From an uncultured Spirochaetota bacterium (GTDB lineage: Bacteria > Spirochaetota > Spirochaetia > SZUA-6 > Fen-1364), in assembly GCA_963745235.1 (NCBI GenBank), contig CAVUXE010000037.1:32001-96000 (forward strand): a DNA stretch of 64,000 bases. Direction: 5' to 3'. The position numbers and the translations under genes are program-made. Positions 76-32,958 of this stretch are shown here, piece by piece. The first letter of the stretch is position 1. Each line of letters begins with the position of its first letter. The notes under the pieces are model-generated. The model ran no database searches. It worked only from the letters and a program-made list of their open reading frames with translations, and was not told where the DNA came from.

Positions 76-160
76 GCCGGCGTGATGAAATGGCAGACAT
101 GCCAGACTCAAAATCTGGTGGGTGGCAACGCCCGTGTCGGTTCAAGTCCGACCGCCGGCA
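76..160 (+). tRNA. tRNA-Leu(CAA)
   Basis: Acceptor stem GCCGGCG/CGCCGGC, anticodon arm CCAGA-CTCAAAA-TCTGG, long variable arm, T-loop GGTTCAAGTCC; no encoded CCA. Confidence 0.97.
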
Positions 161-377
161 GAGAGTTCGTGCAGATGCAAGGAATTGGCGCACCACCCTT
201 CCATGAACGGGCGGAAGGATGGCCCACTCGCCCCTATCCATACCAGTTTCCCTACCAGTTGAGCGGCCTTGTTCCTTCCAAACTGCGAGCCTCGGAAGGG
301 ACTATGCTCGTGACGGCGAGAAGGGTTCGGCATTGCGTCCTCCCGTGTAGGAAGCCGCCAATCCGGCTCGATTCAGC

Positions 378-1797: not shown

Positions 1798-2890
1798 TGC
1801 GGTCCTCCTTCTTCAACTGCGCGAGGATCTCTTCCTGCACCGCGAGGATCCGCGCCAGCGTCTGCTCAATGCGCCCGTTTGTGCCCCCCTGCTGAGGCGA
1901 CCCGCGATCCTGGCTCCTGCGAGCGCCGATTTTCGACTGCGCCTGCATGAGCGCATCGAACGGATCGAGGTAGGCGAGCCGGGGGATGGGTTCCGTCCGT
2001 GCAAGGAAAGTCACGTCGCCGAGCAGATCGCGGAGAATGCTGGATGCATTCCTCTCGTGGTGCGAGGCGATGCACTGCTGGTGCGATGGCGCGTTGATCT
2101 CGAGGGTCGTGCGCTTGTTCAGGTAAAGACAGCGCTTGCAATGGTACGCATCGCAGGCTGAACAGATGGCGGCGTGGGCGATGTCCAGGAGTTCGGCGTT
2201 CGGCACGCGGAGGCCCTGGCGAAGATTTCCCACGGGCTGGTTCGGCTCATCGTGCAGGAATCCGGGACAGACATACAGGTTTCCTTCAGGCCCGACGGTC
2301 ACGTGGTCGATCCCCGCCTGGCAGTTGCGCATCGAGGTGAGAAAGATCCTGTCGGTCAGGAAGCCGAGCTCGATGTCGCGCCGCCGCCTCAGCGTCTCGG
2401 CCACGCAATGTGCGAGGTCCTGGAGAGACCGCCAATAGAGCTCGAGCGCCGCATCGCCTGGCGTCTCCAGGTCCAGGAGACAAAGGTTTATCCGCCGGCA
2501 CGTTCCAATCAGCGGGAGCAATACCGCCGGCAGCTCGGCGATACGGCCGATGGGGAAGCGCACGATGATATTGGCATCCCGCACACGGGCTGGCAACGCA
2601 GTCTTTTCGAGGTCTTCGGGCCCGACGATCACCGTCGATGCTGGATGCGCATCCGCCGCGGAAAGCGGGACGATGTCGGCATGGCTGACGCTCTGCATGA
2701 CCGGCGCAAAGGACGCAGGAGGTTCCGTCTCTCCGTATTGGAAGTTCACCACCAGCCCCCGCGCCTGGGCGAACGCAACGGCCTCCCGAAGGGTTTCCAA
2801 CGGGATGGGACGCGGCGCGGGTCTTTCAGGCTTCGCGTAGTAGCAGAAGGAAGGCGCAGACTCGTCGATCGGCACGAGGAGGAACTTCAT
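1787..2890 (-). CDS. CXXX repeat peptide maturase (SPASM-containing, lacks CxxxCxxC)
   Basis: N-terminal SFCYY, LTDRI...MRNC.AG...ITVGPEG..Y.CP.F, then CSACDAYHCKRC and PS.QQC; TIGR04119-like as I recall it. Confidence 0.82.
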   Translation of the reverse strand: MKFLLVPIDESAPSFCYYAKPERPAPRPIPLETLREAVAFAQARGLVVNFQYGETEPPASFAPVMQSVSHADIVPLSAADAHPASTVIVGPEDLEKTALPARVRDANIIVRFPIGRIAELPAVLLPLIGTCRRINLCLLDLETPGDAALELYWRSLQDLAHCVAETLRRRRDIELGFLTDRIFLTSMRNCQAGIDHVTVGPEGNLYVCPGFLHDEPNQPVGNLRQGLRVPNAELLDIAHAAICSACDAYHCKRCLYLNKRTTLEINAPSHQQCIASHHERNASSILRDLLGDVTFLARTEPIPRLAYLDPFDALMQAQSKIGARRSQDRGSPQQGGTNGRIEQTLARILAVQEEILAQLKKEDRNGN

Positions 2891-4105
2891 GGCGATGCCC
2901 CCTCGGGGGCTGCGGCAGCGGGCAGTTCTTCACCTACCGGCGGAAGCTTGGCGAACATCTTCCAGTAGTAGCGGTTGGCGCGCACCCGCGCCTTGTGCAT
3001 CGCGCAGATGAAGACGGCCCTCTGATAGATCGTCTCGGTGTCCGCCGCATCGTAGTTCAAGCCCTGGCACCAGGCACATCCGCTGGCAACCTCGCAGGCG
3101 AGGCATTTCTGCGGGCTCTGGCGCATCCGGTCGAGCGTGAGGAACGGACGAAGCCTGTTCTGATCGATCCCCTCGAAGCAGCTTCCCACGGTCCGCGCCG
3201 GGTGTCGCGCGAGCGAGTAGGGTGCGAACCTGATGCAGGGGTAGAAGAGGCCGGCGTGGTCGACGGCGAGCATCTTCCCTGCCCCGCACCAGTTCTGGGT
3301 GTCCTGCTCCGCATCGAGGGGGAGGCCGATCGAATCCGAGAAGAAGGTCGCGGCCACCGTGTTGAAGAGCCCTTTCGCGAGGACGTGGTCTGCAAGCGAT
3401 TTGAGCTGCTCCTCGAGAACCGCATCATCGCCTTCGACCCAGACGTTCTCGAAAACAGTATTGATGAACACGTTCGGTATCCCAAGGTCCCAGAGGTGCA
3501 CGACGCTCTCGAACACGAACGGCAGGTCCTCGTGACCCACCGTGACCTTCGTGCCTGCGCCCGGAAACTGCTCCAGCCACCGGGGGACGTTGCGCACGAC
3601 GTCGCCATAAGATCCCCTCCCATCGGGATACCGGCGCTGCAGGTCGTGCTTGCGCTGCGTGCCATCCAGGCTTAGCCCGATGCTGAGGTGGGCCCTGTTC
3701 TTTGCGATGAAATCCTGGACGCGCGGGTGGTCGTAGAGGATGCCGTTGGTCGAAAGGCTGAACCGGTAGCTGTCGAACCAGGGGTGGTTCTCCTCGTACA
3801 TACGCCGCTTGATGTAGTCGCACACCGCATCGATCAGCTCGATCTCGAGCAGGGGTTCGCCGCCAATGAAAGCCCATTCGACGCTGGACTCGGGAAAGAA
3901 GCGTTGGTTGGCGAGCACGTAGTCCACCGTGCGCCGCGCGATGTCGAAGCTCATGGGGTGCGCGCGGTTCTTGCCCGGACAGGTAACAGTAGCAGCACCG
4001 CAGCTGGCAGTCCTCCGTTACGATGAAGGAGATATTCTTTGCACTGCCTTCGCCCCAGCTCCGTGGCTTCTGCCCGAAAGTGTAATGGCTACTCGGAATA
4101 GACAT
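2887..4105 (-). CDS. Radical SAM/SPASM peptide maturase, CXXX-repeat target family (one apparent frameshift near 3975)
   Basis: KNISFIVTEDCQLRCCYCYL joins MSFDIARRTVDYVL if one G of GGG is removed; FIGGEPL, NWCGAGKML, YPCIRF, CLACEVASGCAWC; TIGR04115-like. Confidence 0.85.
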
Positions 4106-4120
4106 GAGAAGGGGAACCTC

Positions 4121-4336
4121 TCAGTGTGCGCAGACCATGGTGCACGTCGTTGAGCAACTCCCCGTGCAGGACGAGCTGCAGCCACCGGTGCAGGTCCCCT
4201 CGCAGTTGTCCTTGCAGGCGCTGGTGCACGTCCCGCCGCATCCTCCTGGCGGCGAGCAACTCGAGAGGCTGAGACCGAGCAGGGCGAACGAGGTGAGGAC
4301 GGTTGCAGCGCTTCTCAAGAAATGACGGCGGTCCAT
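4121..4336 (-). CDS. CXXX-repeat RiPP precursor (71 aa) with Tat and lipoprotein signal
   Basis: MDRRHFLRSAATVLTSFALLGLSLSSC followed by ten Cys at exact 4-residue spacing; in frame with the upstream rSAM ORF. Confidence 0.82.
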   Translation of the reverse strand: MDRRHFLRSAATVLTSFALLGLSLSSCSPPGGCGGTCTSACKDNCEGTCTGGCSSSCTGSCSTTCTMVCAH

Positions 4337-5458
4337 TTGATCGCTCAGGGCGGGAAGGCCGCCGTCTCCGGTCGTGACGAGCTCGTCATCGACGACGCCT
4401 CTCGCCGCTGGGCTGAGCCTCGACGGGGAATGGCGTCTCTCGGCCGCATCCTGATACTCGTGCCAGGCGCAGCAGTAGGGATCAGGGGCGTTGATGTTGC
4501 CTGTAAAATAGAGGGCGCGCGCCCGGCACCCTCCGCCCGACACCGCGAGGTGCGGGCAGTCGGCACAGCGGGTGTTCAGGGCGAAGACCTTCTTCCTTGC
4601 CAGGTGCTGCGCCCAGAGACTTGCAAGCGGTTGTGCGCGAATGCTGCCTTCAAGGAAATCGTCTCCCAGGAAAGCGCACGGGCTCATGCGGCCGTCGGCC
4701 CTGATGCCGAGCTTGGTATCGGGACAACCGAACCGCTGCGTTTCATTTCCCGCGCCGCATTGGAGCGAAAGGTCGGGAGATCGGCCTATGGCGGCGATCA
4801 TCTGCCAGGCTTCGCCCGCCATCGATGGCGGGATGAGAAGTGAGGAGTTCTCGAGCGCCCTGCCCGCGGGCTTGACGAGCCCGACGACGAGATTGCGTAC
4901 TCCAATGCTTTTCAGGAACTCGGGCAGGCGCGAGATCTCCTGCATGTTCTCGCGGTGAACGGAATACTGAACGACGAGGTCTCGGATATCCGCCGACTGC
5001 AGAAGCCTGATTCCTCGCAGGGCCGCAGCGAAGGCGCCCTGGCTTCGAAGGGAATCATGGGTCTCCGGGGTCACACCATCAAGGCTGACTTTCACCCGCA
5101 CCTGCTCCTGCGCCAGGCAAGCAGCTGTCTCGGCCGTGACGAGGGATCCCGTGGTCAGGAGCGTTACCGCGAGGCTTTTCGCTCGCGCGCGGGAGACGAA
5201 ATGCCGCAACCCGCTTCGCATCATCGGCTCGCCGCCTGAGAAGGTCACAGCTGGCACGCCCATGTCGCTCACCTGATCAATGAGCGAGAGCACTTCCCCG
5301 TCGGAGAGCTCCTGTTCCATGGGCTTCCCCGCGGAGCAATAGCAGTGCCTGCATTGATTGGAACACCTGTTCGTCAGGTCGATGTAGACGCGTGATGGAA
5401 GAAGCGGTGAGAAGGTCTTTCTTTCAGAGCCCATTCCGACATAGAGACTTCTTGCCAT
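4121..5458 (-). CDS. Radical SAM/SPASM enzyme (PqqE/NirJ-like), reading through into the precursor
   Basis: CSNQCRHC, FSGGEP, KVSLDG, SPASM region C...DGRMSPC...CADC...GGGCRARA...DPYC. Confidence 0.85.
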   Translation of the reverse strand: MARSLYVGMGSERKTFSPLLPSRVYIDLTNRCSNQCRHCYCSAGKPMEQELSDGEVLSLIDQVSDMGVPAVTFSGGEPMMRSGLRHFVSRARAKSLAVTLLTTGSLVTAETAACLAQEQVRVKVSLDGVTPETHDSLRSQGAFAAALRGIRLLQSADIRDLVVQYSVHRENMQEISRLPEFLKSIGVRNLVVGLVKPAGRALENSSLLIPPSMAGEAWQMIAAIGRSPDLSLQCGAGNETQRFGCPDTKLGIRADGRMSPCAFLGDDFLEGSIRAQPLASLWAQHLARKKVFALNTRCADCPHLAVSGGGCRARALYFTGNINAPDPYCCAWHEYQDAAERRHSPSRLSPAARGVVDDELVTTGDGGLPALSDQMDRRHFLRSAATVLTSFALLGLSLSSCSPPGGCGGTCTSACKDNCEGTCTGGCSSSCTGSCSTTCTMVCAH

Positions 5459-5728: not shown

Positions 5729-5784
5729 CTCAAAATCTGGTGGGTGGCAACGCCCGTGTCGGTTCAAGTCCGACCGCCGGCAGA
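5729..5784 (+). repeat. att-site copy of the tRNA-Leu 3' half
   Basis: Exact 56-bp duplicate of 107-162; the 5' half of the tRNA is absent. Confidence 0.95.
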
Positions 5785-5819
5785 CAATTCCATCCTTGAT
5801 CGGTTTTGCACTCTGGGCG

Positions 5820-6179: not shown

Positions 6180-6810
6180 CGATGATAGTAGCGCACGAGG
6201 CTCGAAAGGCTCTGGCGGAACGCTATTGGCTTTCCCCCCTCCGCCTCTGCGTTGATCTGCGGAATGGTCTCAGCACCCTCCAGCAGTGGCCAATAGTGTT
6301 GCCGCCACTTCTCGCTGACTTCCAGGAGCGGGACACTGACCGACCCGATGGGCTCCCAGCGAGCGGAGGCCCACGAAGTCATGGCGATATCGCAAAGCGC
6401 GCGGATCAAGGCCAGCTTGTACGTAGCCACCTTCCGATCAGCGTTGATGATGCTTTCCACCCGATCGATGGCGCGCGTGCTCACTCCGGAGGACTGGAAG
6501 TACAGTGTTGCCCAGAGAAAGCCCCTCCCAGCGGAGTCAGCGGATTTCCATTCATTCTCAAGCTCAAACCCAAGCCGTTCGAAAAGGAGCCGAACCTGGG
6601 CAACGGACCGGATGATCATGAGCCTGCCCGCCTCATCACGCTGACCGCCGGGCCTGATGTCACCCCGCTCGACTGGCATAGAGATCAGGAGCTTCCCGCC
6701 CTTCTTGAGGCGCTGGCGAAGCTCGAACGCGACGTCGAAGAGCTCTCCGTCCGGGATGTGCATGATAACGCAGAGAGGAGAACACCGTCATACTCGTGTC
6801 GGATATCCGA
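6180..6810 (-). pseudogene. Class I SAM methyltransferase / HNH-associated protein fragment
   Basis: DGVLLSA..MHIP...LKKGGKLLIS, then KVATYKLALIRALCDIA...YWPL; both ends missing. Confidence 0.6.
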
Positions 6811-6844
6811 GGGCAGGCCTCCAGGCAGGAAGCCATCAGAGAGC

Positions 6845-7774
6845 TTGCCCAGATGGAACTTCATACTTACCGGCAGCTCCGCGCGTCAACTCAGGCGAGG
6901 CAGCGCCAATCTCCTTCCTGGCCGAAGCATCGCACATACCCTGACTCCCGTCATGCAGGCAGAGTGCAGGCCGAGTACTCTGCTGCCGGCCGCCCTGCCG
7001 GCTGAGCCGAGATTTCCCCAGAGGAGCCTGGAAGACTACTTGCTGTTCGGAAGCCTCCCTGGGCTGTATTCAGAAGGACGGGACGCCTGGGCTGAGACGC
7101 TGGCAACGTGGGCCGATCTTTACATCGAGAATGAGGTCCGGCAGGAAAACATCGTCAGGGACATGGGAGCTTTCAGCCGGTTTATCGAGCTTGCGGCGCT
7201 TGAGTCCGGCCGTATCGTCAACTACACCAAGATGGCCTCCGCCGTGGGCGTGGCCGTGAACACGCTCCGCAATTTCTTCCAAGTCCTTGAGGACACCTTC
7301 CTCGGAATACGGGTACCGCCATTCACCGAAACACGCCGCCGTGTCGCCCTGGCACCCCGGTTCGTTCTCTTCGACATAGGAGTTCGCCATGCTCTTGCCG
7401 GTCTTCGCATCTCAGAGGACCTCATTCGCATTGGGGCGGAGGAGCTCTTCGAACAATGGGTCATCTCCGAGCTCTGCCACCGCGCCACTGCCCTGGGGCC
7501 TGGATACTCCGTCAGCTCCTGGCGCACCTCTGGCGGGGCAGAGGTGGACGCCATCCTGCGAACTCCCGAGGAGGTGATTCCCGTGGAGATCAAATGGACC
7601 GACAGCCCGCGGCCATCGGACGCGCGGCACGTGGAGACCTTTCTCGATCTCCACTCGGGGGCGAATCGAGGCTTTGTGGTGTGCCGCACTCCCTCACGCC
7701 AGGCGCTTACCGACCGGGTCACTGCGCTGCCGTGGAATGAGTTCTATAGCTACAGCTTGTCGGGTAATTGCTAG
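6845..7774 (+). pseudogene. AAA+ ATPase with DUF4143, N-terminally truncated; last codons hit by the IS
   Basis: FILTGSSARQLRRG.ANLLPGR, FDIGV, WRTSGGAEVD, VEIKW; no Walker A present. Confidence 0.75.
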
Positions 7775-8205: not shown

Positions 8206-8342
8206 AGTGTCTCCCGTCAATATCCTCCCGGTTCGACTTTGCCTCCCGATCCTCTCTTCGGCCCTGTGTCTGCTCCTTGTGCTCGGCGGCTTCAGTACAC
8301 GCCCTTGCGTTATCCCAACCACTTCAGCGGAGGTTCCCCCCT

Positions 8343-9713
8343 ATGCCGCGTCAGCCCGATCTATTGCCCAGATCCAAGAGTCCAACCATCCCTGTGGCCG
8401 ACAACCATCGCCTCGTCCAGATCGCCGACACCCTCGATTGGGAGGAGCTGCAACAGCGCGCCCAACAGATCCGTCTGGCAAAGTTGAAGAACGCTGCAGG
8501 CCAGCCGCCGCATTTGCGCGCCACCCTCGGCGCTATGCTGTTCATGGCTACACGCAAGCTCACCTATCGGGAGGCGGAAGACCTCATCCAATACTACGCC
8601 CCGGCGCGTTACCTGTGCGGGCTGACCGAGACGAGCTGGACGCCGGACTTCACCACGATCCAAGACTTCACCGAATTGATGGGAGAGCAGGGGATCAATC
8701 TCATCAATCAGTACGTGGTGCACCTGGCGGTGAAGCAAAAGCTGGCAGATCCCAGGACCCTGGTGGCCGACACCACAGCGCAGGAAGCGGCAATCCCCTA
8801 TCCCAACGAGATGGGACTTATGTCCGCCTTCCTGCGCTCGGCGGCTGCCGCAGGGCGGAAGGTTGGCCGAGGGCTGAAGGGGTTTTTGCAACAGACGGCG
8901 AGTCAATTCCAGGCGGCCGGGCAGAAAGCTCGAGAGTACCGCCTGTTTGCCAAGACCAAGGAGAGCAAGGATCGGGTGATGACTCAGATGCTCACCATCG
9001 TCGAGAAGCTCAACGCGCATTTGGGCAAGGCGCTGGGCGAAGCTGCCGCACAGAGAACAAAGCTACGCAAGTACGCCATCGTGGCCAAGAGCAAGCTGGT
9101 GCAATTGCACGAAACGATGAGCAAATTGCTGCCGCAGATCCGCTACTGGATTCGCTCAGGCTATGTGGCCAGCGGCAAGATCATCAGCCTGCATATCCCG
9201 CAACTCTACAGTATCGTGCGCGGCAAAGTAGGCAAATCGGTGGAGTTCGGACTGAGCTGGGGCATTACGCGTCTGGCCGGTGGGTACCTGCTGGCCACGC
9301 TGGCCAAGGATCGCCGCGAGTTGGTGGACACGAAGTTTGCAGTGCGAGCAGTCAAGGACCACCTCGCGCTCTTTGGCAAAGCGCCGCTGGCATATGCCTA
9401 CGATCGTGGTGGATACAGCGCGCAGAACCTCTCCGCCTTGAAGAAGTTGGGGGTCAAGGAGGTGGGACTGGCCCCCCGTGGACGTACACAGTGGTCGGTA
9501 AGCAGACCGGTGCGCGACCGGCTGGTCAGAGAGCGGGCTTTGGTAGAGGCGGGAATCGGCTCCATCAAAAGTCCGCGCTATGGGTTCAACCGCCCGGCAG
9601 CCCGCTCGGTGACTATGATGGGCGCCTGCGGTCAGCGTGCAGTGCTGGGGTTCAACGCCAACAAACTGGTCCGAGAGCTTGCGCGCCGCAAGACAATGGT
9701 GCTGAGCGGTTGA
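8343..9713 (+). CDS. DDE transposase
   Basis: PDFTTIQDF, VADTTAQEA, RGKVGKSVEFG, YDRGG, RALVEAGIG; lies between the TIRs. Confidence 0.9.
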   Translation: MPRQPDLLPRSKSPTIPVADNHRLVQIADTLDWEELQQRAQQIRLAKLKNAAGQPPHLRATLGAMLFMATRKLTYREAEDLIQYYAPARYLCGLTETSWTPDFTTIQDFTELMGEQGINLINQYVVHLAVKQKLADPRTLVADTTAQEAAIPYPNEMGLMSAFLRSAAAAGRKVGRGLKGFLQQTASQFQAAGQKAREYRLFAKTKESKDRVMTQMLTIVEKLNAHLGKALGEAAAQRTKLRKYAIVAKSKLVQLHETMSKLLPQIRYWIRSGYVASGKIISLHIPQLYSIVRGKVGKSVEFGLSWGITRLAGGYLLATLAKDRRELVDTKFAVRAVKDHLALFGKAPLAYAYDRGGYSAQNLSALKKLGVKEVGLAPRGRTQWSVSRPVRDRLVRERALVEAGIGSIKSPRYGFNRPAARSVTMMGACGQRAVLGFNANKLVRELARRKTMVLSG

Positions 9714-11824: not shown

Positions 11825-12018
11825 ATGTGCCTCCGTCCAGGACAAGAAGGTAGTGAAATCCGTCCGCAAGACCATAGCCGGACCTCCGCTCCTTGTAGCC
11901 AGAACCAGAGGTTAGTGGAATTTCAGGCCATGCGGCCGGGTCGGAGGCATGCGCGGGCACGGGTTTCGCCATGAAATTCCGTCTTGCATCACTCGTTTTT
12001 CATGATATGCTTGCCTGT

Positions 12019-13180
12019 GATGATCGAGCGCACCGATCTTCTTGCCGCCTTGAAGAAGGCTCTCTCCCGCAGCCGTGTCGTCGTCCTTACGGGACCACGC
12101 CAGTGCGGAAAAACTACGATAGCCCGCCAGTTTCTGGACGCGACATCAGCCAACTATTTCGATCTGGAGGATCCGGCCGATCTGGAGAGGCTGACTGAGC
12201 CAATGACGGCGCTCGGGCCCCTCGAAGGGCTGATTGTGATAGACGAGGTGCAACGCCGGCCGGATCTCTTCCCGATCCTGCGCGTGTTGGCCGATCGACG
12301 TGATGCCACGGCCCGGTTCCTGATCCTTGGAAGCGCTTCCGGTGATCTCCTGCGTCAAACCTCGGAAAGCCTCGCGGGGAGGACGGAGCGAGTGACCATT
12401 GGAGGCTTCTCATTGAGAGAGTTGGGTGCGAACGCTGAAGAGAAGTTGTGGCTTCGGGGAGGCTTGCCGCTCTCCTACCTCGCCCGAAGCGAAATTGACA
12501 GCGGAGCCTGGCGAAAGAGTTTGATCCAATCACTTCTTGAGCGCGATTTCCCTCAGTGGGGCGTCCGCGTGCCGGCCGTGGCTCTTCTTCGTTTCTGGAC
12601 CATGCTTGCGCACTATCATGGGCAGACATGGAACGCCGCCGAGCCGGCCCGCGCCATGGGAGTCAGCGAATCCACCGCCCGCCGCTATCTCGACCTTCTC
12701 ACGGATGCTTTGATGATACGGCAATTGCATCCCTATCACGCAAATGTCGGCAAGCGCCAGGTGAAGGCCCCAAAGATCTACGTTCGAGACACGGGACTCC
12801 TGCACCAACTCCTTGGCATCGGCACACACAAGGAGCTGCTCAATCATCCCAAGGTCGGGGCGTCATGGGAAGGGTTTGTCATCGAGCAGCTTCTGATGGC
12901 GGAGCCCCATGATGAAGCATTCTTCTGGTCCACCCATCAAGGCGCTGAGATCGATTTGATCCTGCGCCGAGGTGGCAAGCTTCTGGGGGTCGAGTGCAAA
13001 CGCACCGATACACCGCGAACGACGCAGTCTGTCAGAATCGCGATGGAGGACATTGGGCTGTCACGAGTCGCGATTCTCTATCCGGGAACCAAGCGTTTTA
13101 CGATCGCCGAAAAGGTGGAGGCCGTTCCCATACATACTCTCGCGAAGAGCGAATCGATCTTCGAGAAAGGCAAGGGATAA
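12019..13180 (+). CDS. AAA+ ATPase with DUF4143
   Basis: GPRQCGKTT, IDEVQ, ILGSAS, KIYVRDTGLLH, GASWEG, AEIDL. Confidence 0.92.
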
Positions 13181-31971: not shown

Positions 31972-32958
31972 ATGCGAGCTGTCATTCAAGCTGTAGACTT
32001 TGCAGTTCCCGAGCGAAGAATCACCAACAATGAGCTTGCCACAACGCTCGACACATCGGATGAATGGATCAGGTCACACACGGGTATCGGGTCCCGCCAC
32101 ATTGCAGAGCCCTCTCTCGTCACGTCGGACCTGGCCTTTGAAGCATGCCAGAAGGTCCTGAAAAGGGCCGGAGTAGCCGCGGCAGAGATAGATCTCGTGC
32201 TTGTGGCCACGATTTCCGGTGACTTTCTCGGGTTTCCTTCGGTATCCTGCATCGTCCAGGATCGCCTCGGCGCAGTGTCAGCCGCCGCCATGGACATTGG
32301 CGCGGGATGCACGGGCTTCATTTATGGGCTGGAGACCGCGCGCAGCTTCATCCTGGCGGGGAGCGCAAAGAAAGTCCTGGTTGTCGGCGTTGAGATGCTG
32401 AGCAGGATCATCGACTGGAAAGACAGGAATACGTGCGTGCTCTTCGGTGACGGAGCGGGCGCGGCCCTTGTCACGGCGGAGAACGGGGACGGAAATCGAG
32501 GCATCCTGTCCTCCGTGCTGCGCTCGGACGGTTCCGGCGCCCAGCTCCTGGATCGGCCTGCCGGCGGATCACGCCTGCCCATCACGGATGAGGCATTCGA
32601 TCCAGCGGCCTCCTTCCTGCACATGGATGGACGGCAGGTCTACAACTTCGCGGTGAAGGTTGTCTCCGAGGGGATCGTTGACCTGATGGAAAGGAACAAA
32701 GTCTGCCTGAACGATGTGGCATGGATCGTGCCCCACCAGGCGAATGTCCGCATCATTGAGGCGGCAAGCAAGCGTTCCAAGATCCCGCTGTCGAAGTTTT
32801 TCGTCAATATCGAGGAGTACGCCAATACCTCGGCGGCCTCCATCCCCATTGCCCTCTCCGAGATGCAGGCCAAGGGCCTGGTGAAGCAGGGGGACCTGCT
32901 CGTCACCTTCGGCTTCGGCGCCGGTCTTACCTACGGCGGGAACTTGATCAGGTGGTAG
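31972..32958 (+). CDS. fabH: 3-oxoacyl-ACP synthase III
   Basis: DTSDEWI, AGCTGF, LFGDGAGA, PHQAN, ANTSAASIP. Confidence 0.95.
   Translation: MRAVIQAVDFAVPERRITNNELATTLDTSDEWIRSHTGIGSRHIAEPSLVTSDLAFEACQKVLKRAGVAAAEIDLVLVATISGDFLGFPSVSCIVQDRLGAVSAAAMDIGAGCTGFIYGLETARSFILAGSAKKVLVVGVEMLSRIIDWKDRNTCVLFGDGAGAALVTAENGDGNRGILSSVLRSDGSGAQLLDRPAGGSRLPITDEAFDPAASFLHMDGRQVYNFAVKVVSEGIVDLMERNKVCLNDVAWIVPHQANVRIIEAASKRSKIPLSKFFVNIEEYANTSAASIPIALSEMQAKGLVKQGDLLVTFGFGAGLTYGGNLIRW

Follow-up and report, generated by a model that had tools for sequence, protein, structure and literature searches.

Within the 64,000-nucleotide stretch of DNA analysed here (the window; positions 32,001 to 96,000 of contig CAVUXE010000037.1 from an uncultured Spirochaetota bacterium), an open reading frame (ORF) of 71 residues on the minus strand (4121–4336) joins an apparent export signal to a dense ladder of cysteines, which raises the question of what kind of peptide it encodes, how this peptide is modified and in what form it would reach the cell envelope. 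Our analysis indicates that the ORF is probably the precursor of a CXXX-repeat radical S-adenosylmethionine (SAM) cassette borne on an islet at a tRNA-Leu gene, and that its product would be modified, exported by way of Tat, the twin-arginine translocation route, and, in the sub-lineage of the window, anchored by a lipid. The frame opens with ATG at 4336, closes with TGA at 4123–4121 and translates as MDRRHFLRSAATVLTSFALLGLSLSSCSPPGGCGGTCTSACKDNCEGTCTGGCSSSCTGSCSTTCTMVCAH. It contains 11 cysteines (residues 27, 33, 37, 41, 45, 49, 53, 57, 61, 65 and 69), separated by one spacing of 6 and then nine of 4, with C33–C69 forming ten cysteines in register; cysteine makes up 15% of the peptide, and the second position between cysteines (X2) is rich in glycine. 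The twin arginine is R3-R4 within D-R-R-H-F-L-R, and this segment is followed by a hydrophobic region (h-region) of 18 uncharged residues, by L24-S25-S26-C27, which matches the lipobox [LVI][ASTVI][GAS]C, and by a SPPGG spacer. The original prediction had listed the RR motif, the h-region, the fit of LSSC to a lipobox, the SPPGG spacer and ten cysteines exactly four residues apart, and every one of these elements is found in the sequence, the last of them at residues 33–69. Two other assignments were rejected: the peptide contains neither a heme-binding CXXCH site nor the C/S-x-P/A-x-R motif that we take to mark formylglycine-type (anSME) substrates.

Profile searches place the peptide in a named family: hmmscan aligned it with the NCBIfam model TIGR04117, 'Cys-Xaa-Xaa-Xaa repeat radical SAM target protein' (E 4.2e-12, 46.0 bits, cut-off 50), whilst a six-frame search of the genome scored 49.7 bits, or 50.1 bits with the neighbours in frame, against this model of the narrow 'paralog' type. 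Because of this match, and because the gene of a TIGR04115 maturase starts 15 nt downstream of the precursor stop, the cysteine-repeat ORF is not a chance reading frame. A single minus-strand operon holds matches to TIGR04117, TIGR04115, TIGR04119, TIGR04116, TatA and TatC; downstream of the precursor lie, in this order, the main maturase, a radical SAM/SPASM protein of family TIGR04115 (2887–4105; 518.5 bits, cut-off 350, with a further 27.2 bits for the N-terminal piece), the CXXX repeat peptide maturase TIGR04119 (1787–2890; 195.3 bits, cut-off 150), the 101-residue CXXX repeat peptide modification system protein TIGR04116 (1492–1797; 78.8 bits, cut-off 50), a TatA/E-family protein (1137–1469; TIGR01411 55.7 bits, cut-off 53.9; PF02416 51.6 bits) and TatC (378–1118; TIGR00945 153.5 bits). 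Immediately upstream, on the same strand, a second radical SAM/SPASM enzyme resembling NirJ, AhbD and PqqE is encoded (4337–5458; PF04055 79.9 bits, below every NCBIfam cut-off). The locus therefore displays C-X3 repeats, an adjoining TIGR04115 gene and the operon partners TIGR04119 and TIGR04116, and the earlier suggestion of a precursor of the type of RiPPs (peptides made on ribosomes and modified after translation) has held, with radical SAM maturases adjoining the gene. As NCBI already names the family, the peptide does not represent a new precursor class: judged by profile match and gene context, it is a genuine precursor of the catalogued, biochemically uncharacterised CXXX-repeat radical SAM system, for which the in silico definition is reportedly due to Haft and Basu (2011). 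The window shares with this system the same four families in one operon and the C-X3 core, but adds a second radical SAM/SPASM enzyme with an ORF that forms an in-frame fusion with the precursor, a signal that ends in a lipobox, and the location of the set, together with tatAC, in a tRNA-flanked islet. A profile of the precursor N-terminus retrieved 2421 database proteins of 24–128 residues, some of which NCBI or JGI list under the name 'Cys-Xaa-Xaa-Xaa repeat radical SAM target protein' already, and Pfam PF27846 is given for many of these relatives. The 71-residue sequence has no record as a separate protein in a collection of 15 billion proteins, and a single-sequence search with the peptide gave no matches, a result probably caused by low-complexity filtering that does not imply absence.

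Export through the Tat pathway is the best supported part of this reading. We surveyed 88 related loci and the window for stop-to-stop frames with at least four consecutive cysteine repeats and found the motif RR.[FLIVMAG][LFIVMT] ahead of the cysteine block in 106 of 135 such frames; the other 29 comprise 9 that run off a contig end, 8 maturase enzymes and 12 short fragments or spurious frames. After frames with less than 10% cysteine had been dropped, 100 unique RR-bearing precursors from 67 loci were retained. The motif is also present in all of the best 120 of the 2421 database relatives, an independent sample that was not selected for RR. The signal consensus reads RRxFFKxAAKxxLPxLG, with F and P each occurring in at least 90% of 86 aligned precursors (these had been selected for RR), and the cores are variable. 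At the level of gene order, the succession of radical SAM enzyme, TIGR04119, TIGR04116, TatA and TatC is seen again in genomes of Bacteroidota and in two genomes belonging to the window's taxonomic order. Using hidden Markov models (HMMs) built from the window proteins, which divergent TatA and TatC copies may escape, TatA was detected after TIGR04116 in 36 of the 64 loci that leave 350 nt or more for it, and TatC downstream in 30 of the 51 that leave 1300 nt or more. A single TatC is encoded in each of five other genomes that possess the system, and in three of them it is the cassette copy; in the window genome the cassette TatC is the sole one above the family cut-off. All seven genes, tatAC and the maturases together, are enclosed by an islet of ~5.6 kb between tRNA-Leu repeats. 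Given the family-wide RR motif, the recurrent linkage to tatAC, the cassette-only TatC and the enclosure in one islet, the twin-arginine signal that had been claimed for the peptide is confirmed as a family-wide feature with a TatA/TatC pair in the cassette, and Tat export of the precursor is predicted with good confidence. Two observations on the Tat genes themselves may be added: a second tatC in the genome (contig C79:8784–9301) is split over two frames, and the cassette TatA ends in a CxxC...CxxC tail that resembles a zinc ribbon (Zn_Ribbon_1 23.9 bits, cut-off 25), which is unusual for TatA.

The signal was further claimed to double as the RiPP leader. This is not supported as stated, since its sole basis is the conservation of the signal (RRxFFKxAAKxxLPxLG): as the signal is conserved beyond the needs of Tat targeting whilst the cores vary, it appears leader-like, which is a hint at most, and we regard a leader role as evenly balanced between yes and no. 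A complex prediction for the TIGR04116 protein with precursor residues 1–36 gave a score of 0.01 and a mark of 0.32.

The islet is delimited by a direct repeat of 62 nt, of which one copy (107–168, plus strand) falls on the 3' part of a tRNA-Leu(CAA) gene (76–160, plus strand) and the other, 97% identical, lies at the far end (5729–5790, plus strand); its 42-nt core occurs exactly at two places and not at all in shuffled sequences. Such a repetition of the tRNA-Leu 3' part on both sides is the mark left by an inserted islet. It contains no integrase, and a compositionally foreign character was rejected (GC fraction 0.613 against 0.624 for the window). The CXXX system was not found in 20 genomes of the same genus or in 24 of the same family; it scored over the cut-off in 3 of 61 genomes of relatives, the window genome included, and in 2 of the 401 genomes that were sampled across the phylum. 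Several copies are present in two genomes of one other genus that belongs to the same taxonomic order. On a larger scale the system is large and common in gut Bacteroidota (Prevotellaceae, Muribaculaceae, Bacteroidaceae). In a scan of metagenome contigs, 555 of 596 candidate stretches encode a maturase relative, 80 of which were kept; a contig scan with a single maturase query gave 3 loci, and the three named genomes with the system were those of Bacteroidota (Prevotellaceae, Bacteroidaceae, Muribaculaceae).

In case of the lipobox, the family is divided. We scored as strict any [LVI][ASTVI][GAS]C that is preceded by 12 uncharged positions, a form that the window precursor shows at C27. At the first cysteine this pattern is present in 22 of the 100 unique precursors, while the same triad precedes 17 of 2109 other cysteines; a looser pattern of the PROSITE type raises the number to 28. 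The remaining 72 show neither pattern, most of them displaying an AxA-type site by eye (uncounted) and three carrying LNSC, which is scored by neither, and the strict lipobox occurs in none of the best 120 database hits. The two forms also differ in build: from the first arginine to the lipobox cysteine there are 19–32 residues in strict forms (24 in the window), compared with 28–48, mostly at least 33, to the first cysteine in the 72 precursors without lipobox; the next cysteine follows at an offset of 1–23 residues in strict forms, while the first cysteine opens the C-X3 register, with the next one four residues on, in 56 of the 72. Of the 22 precursors with a strict lipobox, 13 have at least two Asp or Glu residues at positions +2 to +7, versus 6 of the 72 without lipobox; in lipoproteins of Bacteroidota, an acidic stretch after the lipobox cysteine serves as a signal for export to the surface. 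By locus, 42 contain no-lipobox precursors alone, 17 lipobox precursors alone and 8 both, and on a maturase tree built by a quick maximum-likelihood search the lipobox label requires at least 8 gains or losses on well-supported branches, one label (L042; L numbers denote related loci) probably being a false positive of the loose pattern. On this quick tree the window groups with L028 and L029 at a Shimodaira–Hasegawa-like approximate likelihood ratio (SH-aLRT) support of 98. The lipobox is kept in the two closest relatives, as LGLSLAS-C in the L029 precursor and LGLSLSG-C in P0001 (P numbers denote homologues of the upstream radical SAM/SPASM ORF). Lgt (234.6 bits), LspA (87.6 bits), Lnt (306 bits, two genes) and BamA (408 bits) are all encoded in the window genome over their cut-offs, and by its gene content the organism is a diderm with the full lipoprotein pathway; an lnt-like gene on contig C49 (23012–23988) is split over three frames.

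The enrichment at the first cysteine, the distinct build and the retention in P0001 and L029 indicate that the lipobox is a real and recurrent minority variant, kept in the sub-lineage of the window and not family-wide. The proposal that the precursor carries a lipobox and becomes lipidated thus stands in part: enrichment, retention in P0001 and L029 and the presence of Lgt, LspA and Lnt speak for it, but most of the family lacks the feature, and conservation of Cys27 across homologues, which had been put forward as a check, did not extend to the family, with 72 of 100 precursors without lipobox and a strict one in 0 of the 120 best hits, so that this check came out mixed. We consider lipidation of Cys27 plausible and, as a prediction from the sequence, slightly favoured. 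Separately, human-gut loci contain an ORF of 109 residues with RR and L[VA]SC between the TIGR04119 and TIGR04116 genes (L072, 2868–3020; also L073, L074, L085 and L086), which may represent an additional Tat lipoprotein encoded by the cassette.

Regarding the chemistry installed on the ladder, the TIGR04115 protein is related to, without being a member of, characterised thioether-forming families: it matches the PapB model NF047865 (E 1.6e-47, 162.4 bits, cut-off 340), QhpD (TIGR03906, E 1.4e-25), SCIFF (TIGR03974, 83.9 bits, cut-off 425) and CrpC (TIGR04463, E 4.6e-9), with CcpM likewise related and below its cut-off. As regards a PqqD-like RiPP recognition element (RRE) domain that would bind the leader, the protein starts ~30 residues before CxxxCxxC, and by inspection there is little space for a domain at its N-terminus. 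In the TIGR04119 protein the CxxxCxxC motif is missing, whilst the cysteines of its SPASM part are invariant in the alignment; its AlphaFold2 model (mean pLDDT, the predicted local distance difference test, 89.8) finds the folds of CteB (5why/5wgg; E 6e-10, template modelling score 0.57–0.60) and anSME (4k36) as best matches, and we read it as a degenerate radical SAM/SPASM partner. For the TIGR04116 protein, the model (pLDDT 91.5) consists of a helical hairpin and a small sheet, for which Foldseek returned no match at E <=0.001 and a wide VIA-align search generic helical hairpins alone (Z <=6.9). Across the relatives, 1842 of 2109 successive cysteines are four residues apart; X1 is mostly Ser, Thr or Lys, X2 is Gly in 38%, X3 is Ser, Thr or Gly in 69%, and Asp and Glu are minor. 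By analogy with PapB, QhpD, CteB and CrpC, a thioether ladder is our best guess at the product, although as a prediction it falls just short of an even chance.

Taken together, these data allow a course of events to be proposed. The cassette would have arrived as a 5.6-kb islet at tRNA-Leu; the precursor would be synthesised in the cytoplasm, and its C33–C69 ladder would be modified by the TIGR04115 radical SAM/SPASM enzyme, its catalytically degenerate TIGR04119 partner and the second radical SAM/SPASM enzyme, with intramolecular thioether cross-links as the most likely outcome by the analogy just mentioned. The rigid modified peptide would be unfit for Sec and would leave through the cassette TatA/TatC by means of its RR signal, and Cys27 would receive its acyl groups from the Lgt, LspA and Lnt pathway, with cleavage just in front of it, yielding a lipid-anchored envelope peptide of ~45 residues in a diderm cell.

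Several observations weigh against this proposal. At the level of family assignment and export, the hmmscan score of 46 remains under the TIGR04117 cut-off, the Pfam TAT_signal HMM gives 13.1 bits on the precursor (cut-off 22.7), and L028, the nearest relative by maturase, has no tatAC within 3.7 kb after its cassette. At the cleavage site, the lipobox is missing from most of the family, a signal peptidase I (SPI) site can also be read at S23-L-S25|S26, and as cysteine is very frequent in the precursor, a cysteine after LSS is less telling than usual. In the core, the C-X3-Asp/Glu acceptor motif of the PapB type is not present, the residue at i+4 being cysteine. At the gene level, the ATG of the precursor is preceded by a weak GAG Shine-Dalgarno sequence, compared with good sites for 5 of the 6 other operon genes (that of the rSAM_Cxxx gene being a distant one), the in-frame fusion to the upstream enzyme leaves the free 71-residue product putative, and in this assembly one extra base near 3977 places the two parts of the TIGR04115 gene in different frames. 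In the literature we found no experimental study of any member of the CXXX-repeat system, and none joining radical SAM with twin-arginine, RiPP and thioether.

Of the explanations that compete with a free precursor, the one that the reading frame itself suggests is that the real product is a 445-residue fusion of enzyme and substrate (4121–5458), in which the RR segment would act as an internal Tat signal of a class V-like kind, the enzyme would stay in the cytoplasm and cleavage at the lipobox would release the ladder. The precursor frame is indeed open upstream, without a stop, into the 374-codon radical SAM/SPASM gene, with a linker of 44 residues joining the region of the enzyme's PDPYCC motif to the precursor Met, and contigs of three other public sequencing runs (X1 whole, X2 and X4 in part) show the junction in the same form. 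One protein with the same layout was found among 1.84 billion representatives: P0001 (447 residues, 55% identity, aligned over 20–443), which is encoded on a contig of 1515 nt and bears no more specific name than 'radical SAM protein with 4Fe4S-binding SPASM domain'. Its linker likewise counts 44 residues (by manual count) at ~20% identity, with a conserved end G-x-[LF]-P-[AS]-L-S-x-Q-M, and this equal length at low identity argues that the linker is translated; in addition, gene callers report the fused protein alone, leaving the 71-residue peptide with its weak Shine-Dalgarno sequence and without a record of its own, and a review (PMC13673990) describes Tat substrates of class V, with FecR as example, in which the signal is internal and follows a folded domain in the cytoplasm, a layout that the fused ORF would resemble. 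However, the two fused ORFs are the only examples found; a search for more with residues 336–445 of the 445-residue ORF returned none (that search also missed P0001 itself, probably through low-complexity filtering, and so does not imply absence), and other homologues of the enzyme (P0002, P0004, P0006) stop 15–25 residues past PDPYCC. All other precursors in the 67 loci are free small ORFs that start a few residues before RR, exactly the position of ATG 4336, and from where the enzyme domain ends to the RR motif no other start codon lies in frame; some 40 open codons are not rare by chance at 62% GC (by our own estimate ~0.3), and alleles exist in which the upstream enzyme is broken and the peptide intact. 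Weighing both sides, we judge the fusion to be somewhat unlikely when set against a nested precursor with a translation start of its own. Its most far-reaching form is unlikely outright: here the tail of a maturase would be its precursor, the internal RR and lipobox would serve as a release device, the private TatAC would thread the modified ladder and Lgt and LspA would free a lipid-anchored, cross-linked peptide, whilst the whole CXXX family (at least 2421 precursors) would consist of Tat-dependent laddered envelope peptides. If this were true, a single-use maturase, a Tat-exported RiPP and a RiPP lipidated by the lipoprotein pathway would be combined in one. The broken alleles bear on a different doubt, namely that the cassette is a decaying, non-functional acquisition in this genome and the peptide does nothing here. 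The frameshift affects an essential gene, that of TIGR04115, separating the CxxxCxxC (in frame 3425–4105) from the remainder (2887–3954); the upstream radical SAM/SPASM frame is broken by a 1-nt deletion at 4715 in three runs, two of which also have an 11-nt insertion after 4855, and carries a further -1 indel at 5354 in other samples, with a truncated product of such an allele (P0003, 177 residues) deposited in public collections; and the islet has no integrase, in a genus and family whose sampled genomes gave no trace of the system. Against decay, base 3977 is missing in both runs that cover it (X2 and X3, from two other studies; the contigs of the runs are of low depth, 2–6), restoring one frame of 405 residues colinear with homologues, and the remaining cassette genes are open and over their cut-offs. 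As the assembly holds other split genes (tatC on C79, lnt on C49), the extra base may be an assembly error, these two splits themselves reflecting either a frameshift-prone assembly or pseudogenes. A decayed cassette thus appears improbable.

Two further alternatives accept the cassette and its Tat export and differ from lipid anchoring of a cross-linked ladder in the fate of the peptide. With cleavage by SPI, for example after S23-L-S25, the product would be a soluble, cross-linked peptide in the periplasm or secreted, and Cys27 would be the first cysteine of its core. The majority of the family, with its apparent AxA-type sites, and the best database hits without a strict lipobox are what this would predict, and the window precursor has small residues at -1 and -3. 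Yet it is without the 8-to-10-residue c-region of the SPI-type precursors of L032–L035; its cysteine directly follows the h-region at 24 residues from the first arginine, as in lipobox forms; LSL[SA][SG]C is kept in P0001 and L029; and SPPGG sets C27 off from the C-X3 register, all of which leads us to regard SPI cleavage of this particular precursor as unlikely. The other alternative concerns the ladder: its cysteines might not be cross-linked but loaded with metal or Fe-S clusters in the cytoplasm, the peptide then being exported by Tat as a metal-binding or redox element of the envelope. Tat typically carries cofactor-loaded proteins, which would suit this cargo, as would a cysteine content of 15% and the glycine-rich X2 position, and in the passages of their paper considered here the authors of a study on CrpA suspect metal binding for that Cys-repeat protein (PMC13692751). 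Two or three proteins of radical SAM/SPASM fold dedicated to the peptide are difficult to reconcile with metal loading, however; their nearest characterised relatives all form covalent thioethers or oxidise cysteine, and no metallochaperone or Fe-S assembly gene lies within the islet. We therefore consider a metal-loaded ladder very unlikely, and retain the modified, Tat-exported and lipid-anchored precursor as the preferred reading.

Among characterised systems, several parallels can be drawn. QhpD, a radical SAM/SPASM enzyme, forms thioethers in the small Cys-rich protein QhpC, the cross-linked gamma subunit of quinohemoprotein amine dehydrogenase, in the cytoplasm, before the latter reaches the periplasm; QhpC leaves by a dedicated ATP-binding cassette (ABC) exporter after a protease has removed its leader, and becomes an enzyme subunit. 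For the window peptide, in contrast, export is predicted via Tat, and no partner enzyme is encoded nearby. Of the characterised enzymes, PapB, which acts on PapA in the biosynthesis of the ranthipeptide freyrasin, stands nearest to the main maturase, and PapA shares repeated cysteines at a four-residue register, as C-X3-D (PMC9413430). The 162 bits are far below the cut-off of 340, however, and the window has cysteine at i+4 in place of Asp/Glu; moreover, a Tat signal, lipobox or tat genes do not figure in the portions of text considered on PapA. The window precursor, with its putative Tat export, would differ from a free antibiotic-type RiPP. In Methanococcus voltae, according to a study of 2026, the SPASM radical SAM enzyme CrpC installs ranthionine links in the Cys-repeat protein CrpA, whose 47 N-terminal residues are leader-like (PMC13692751, in the parts considered). 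CrpC is a distant relative that, according to the same parts, possesses an RRE domain, and CrpA has a 17-residue repeat with C-x-x-Q/D; no export signal is mentioned for it in the passages of that paper in which the word 'signal' occurs (three occurrences). On the side of export, Tat-dependent lipoproteins are described as class II Tat substrates in the Tat review (PMC13673990); 'radical SAM', 'RiPP' and 'thioether' turned up nowhere when that text was searched for these words. The window precursor shares with class II the RR consensus, the uncharged h-region, the lipobox and an encoded Tat and Lgt/LspA machinery, but differs from the known Tat lipoproteins and class V examples, which are ordinary folded proteins.

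Beyond the existing catalogue entry, the new points are thus a firm link to Tat, two export classes of which the window represents the lipobox class, the islet context and the fused reading frame. Two export forms of the precursor are predicted, one soluble (SPI-type) and one lipid-anchored (lipobox), and the products would be radical SAM-modified envelope peptides instead of secreted antibiotics, Tat being needed because they would be cross-linked before export. The window variant offers a compact model (71 residues, GC-rich, with lipobox) and raises the possibility of a maturase–precursor fusion with an internal Tat signal. As gene callers join the peptide to the enzyme upstream of it, such precursors will be missed in annotation.

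Minor observations concern the surroundings of the islet and the range of ladders. Beside the islet, two genes for DUF4143/AAA ATPases (6182–7774, 8277–9713) and a DUF772 transposase-like gene (11984–13180) are encoded. The longest core in the set belongs to a precursor of ~330 residues in L023 (7382–8413; genome G049), with ~70 C-X3 units behind a Tat signal that ends in ATG-C. In four other loci a C-X3 ladder forms the C-terminus of larger proteins, which have ~300–490 non-Cys residues (L097:4773–5861, L094:4203–5087, L039:2–1051 and L018:3–1463), so that the maturases may act on proteins as well as on short peptides.

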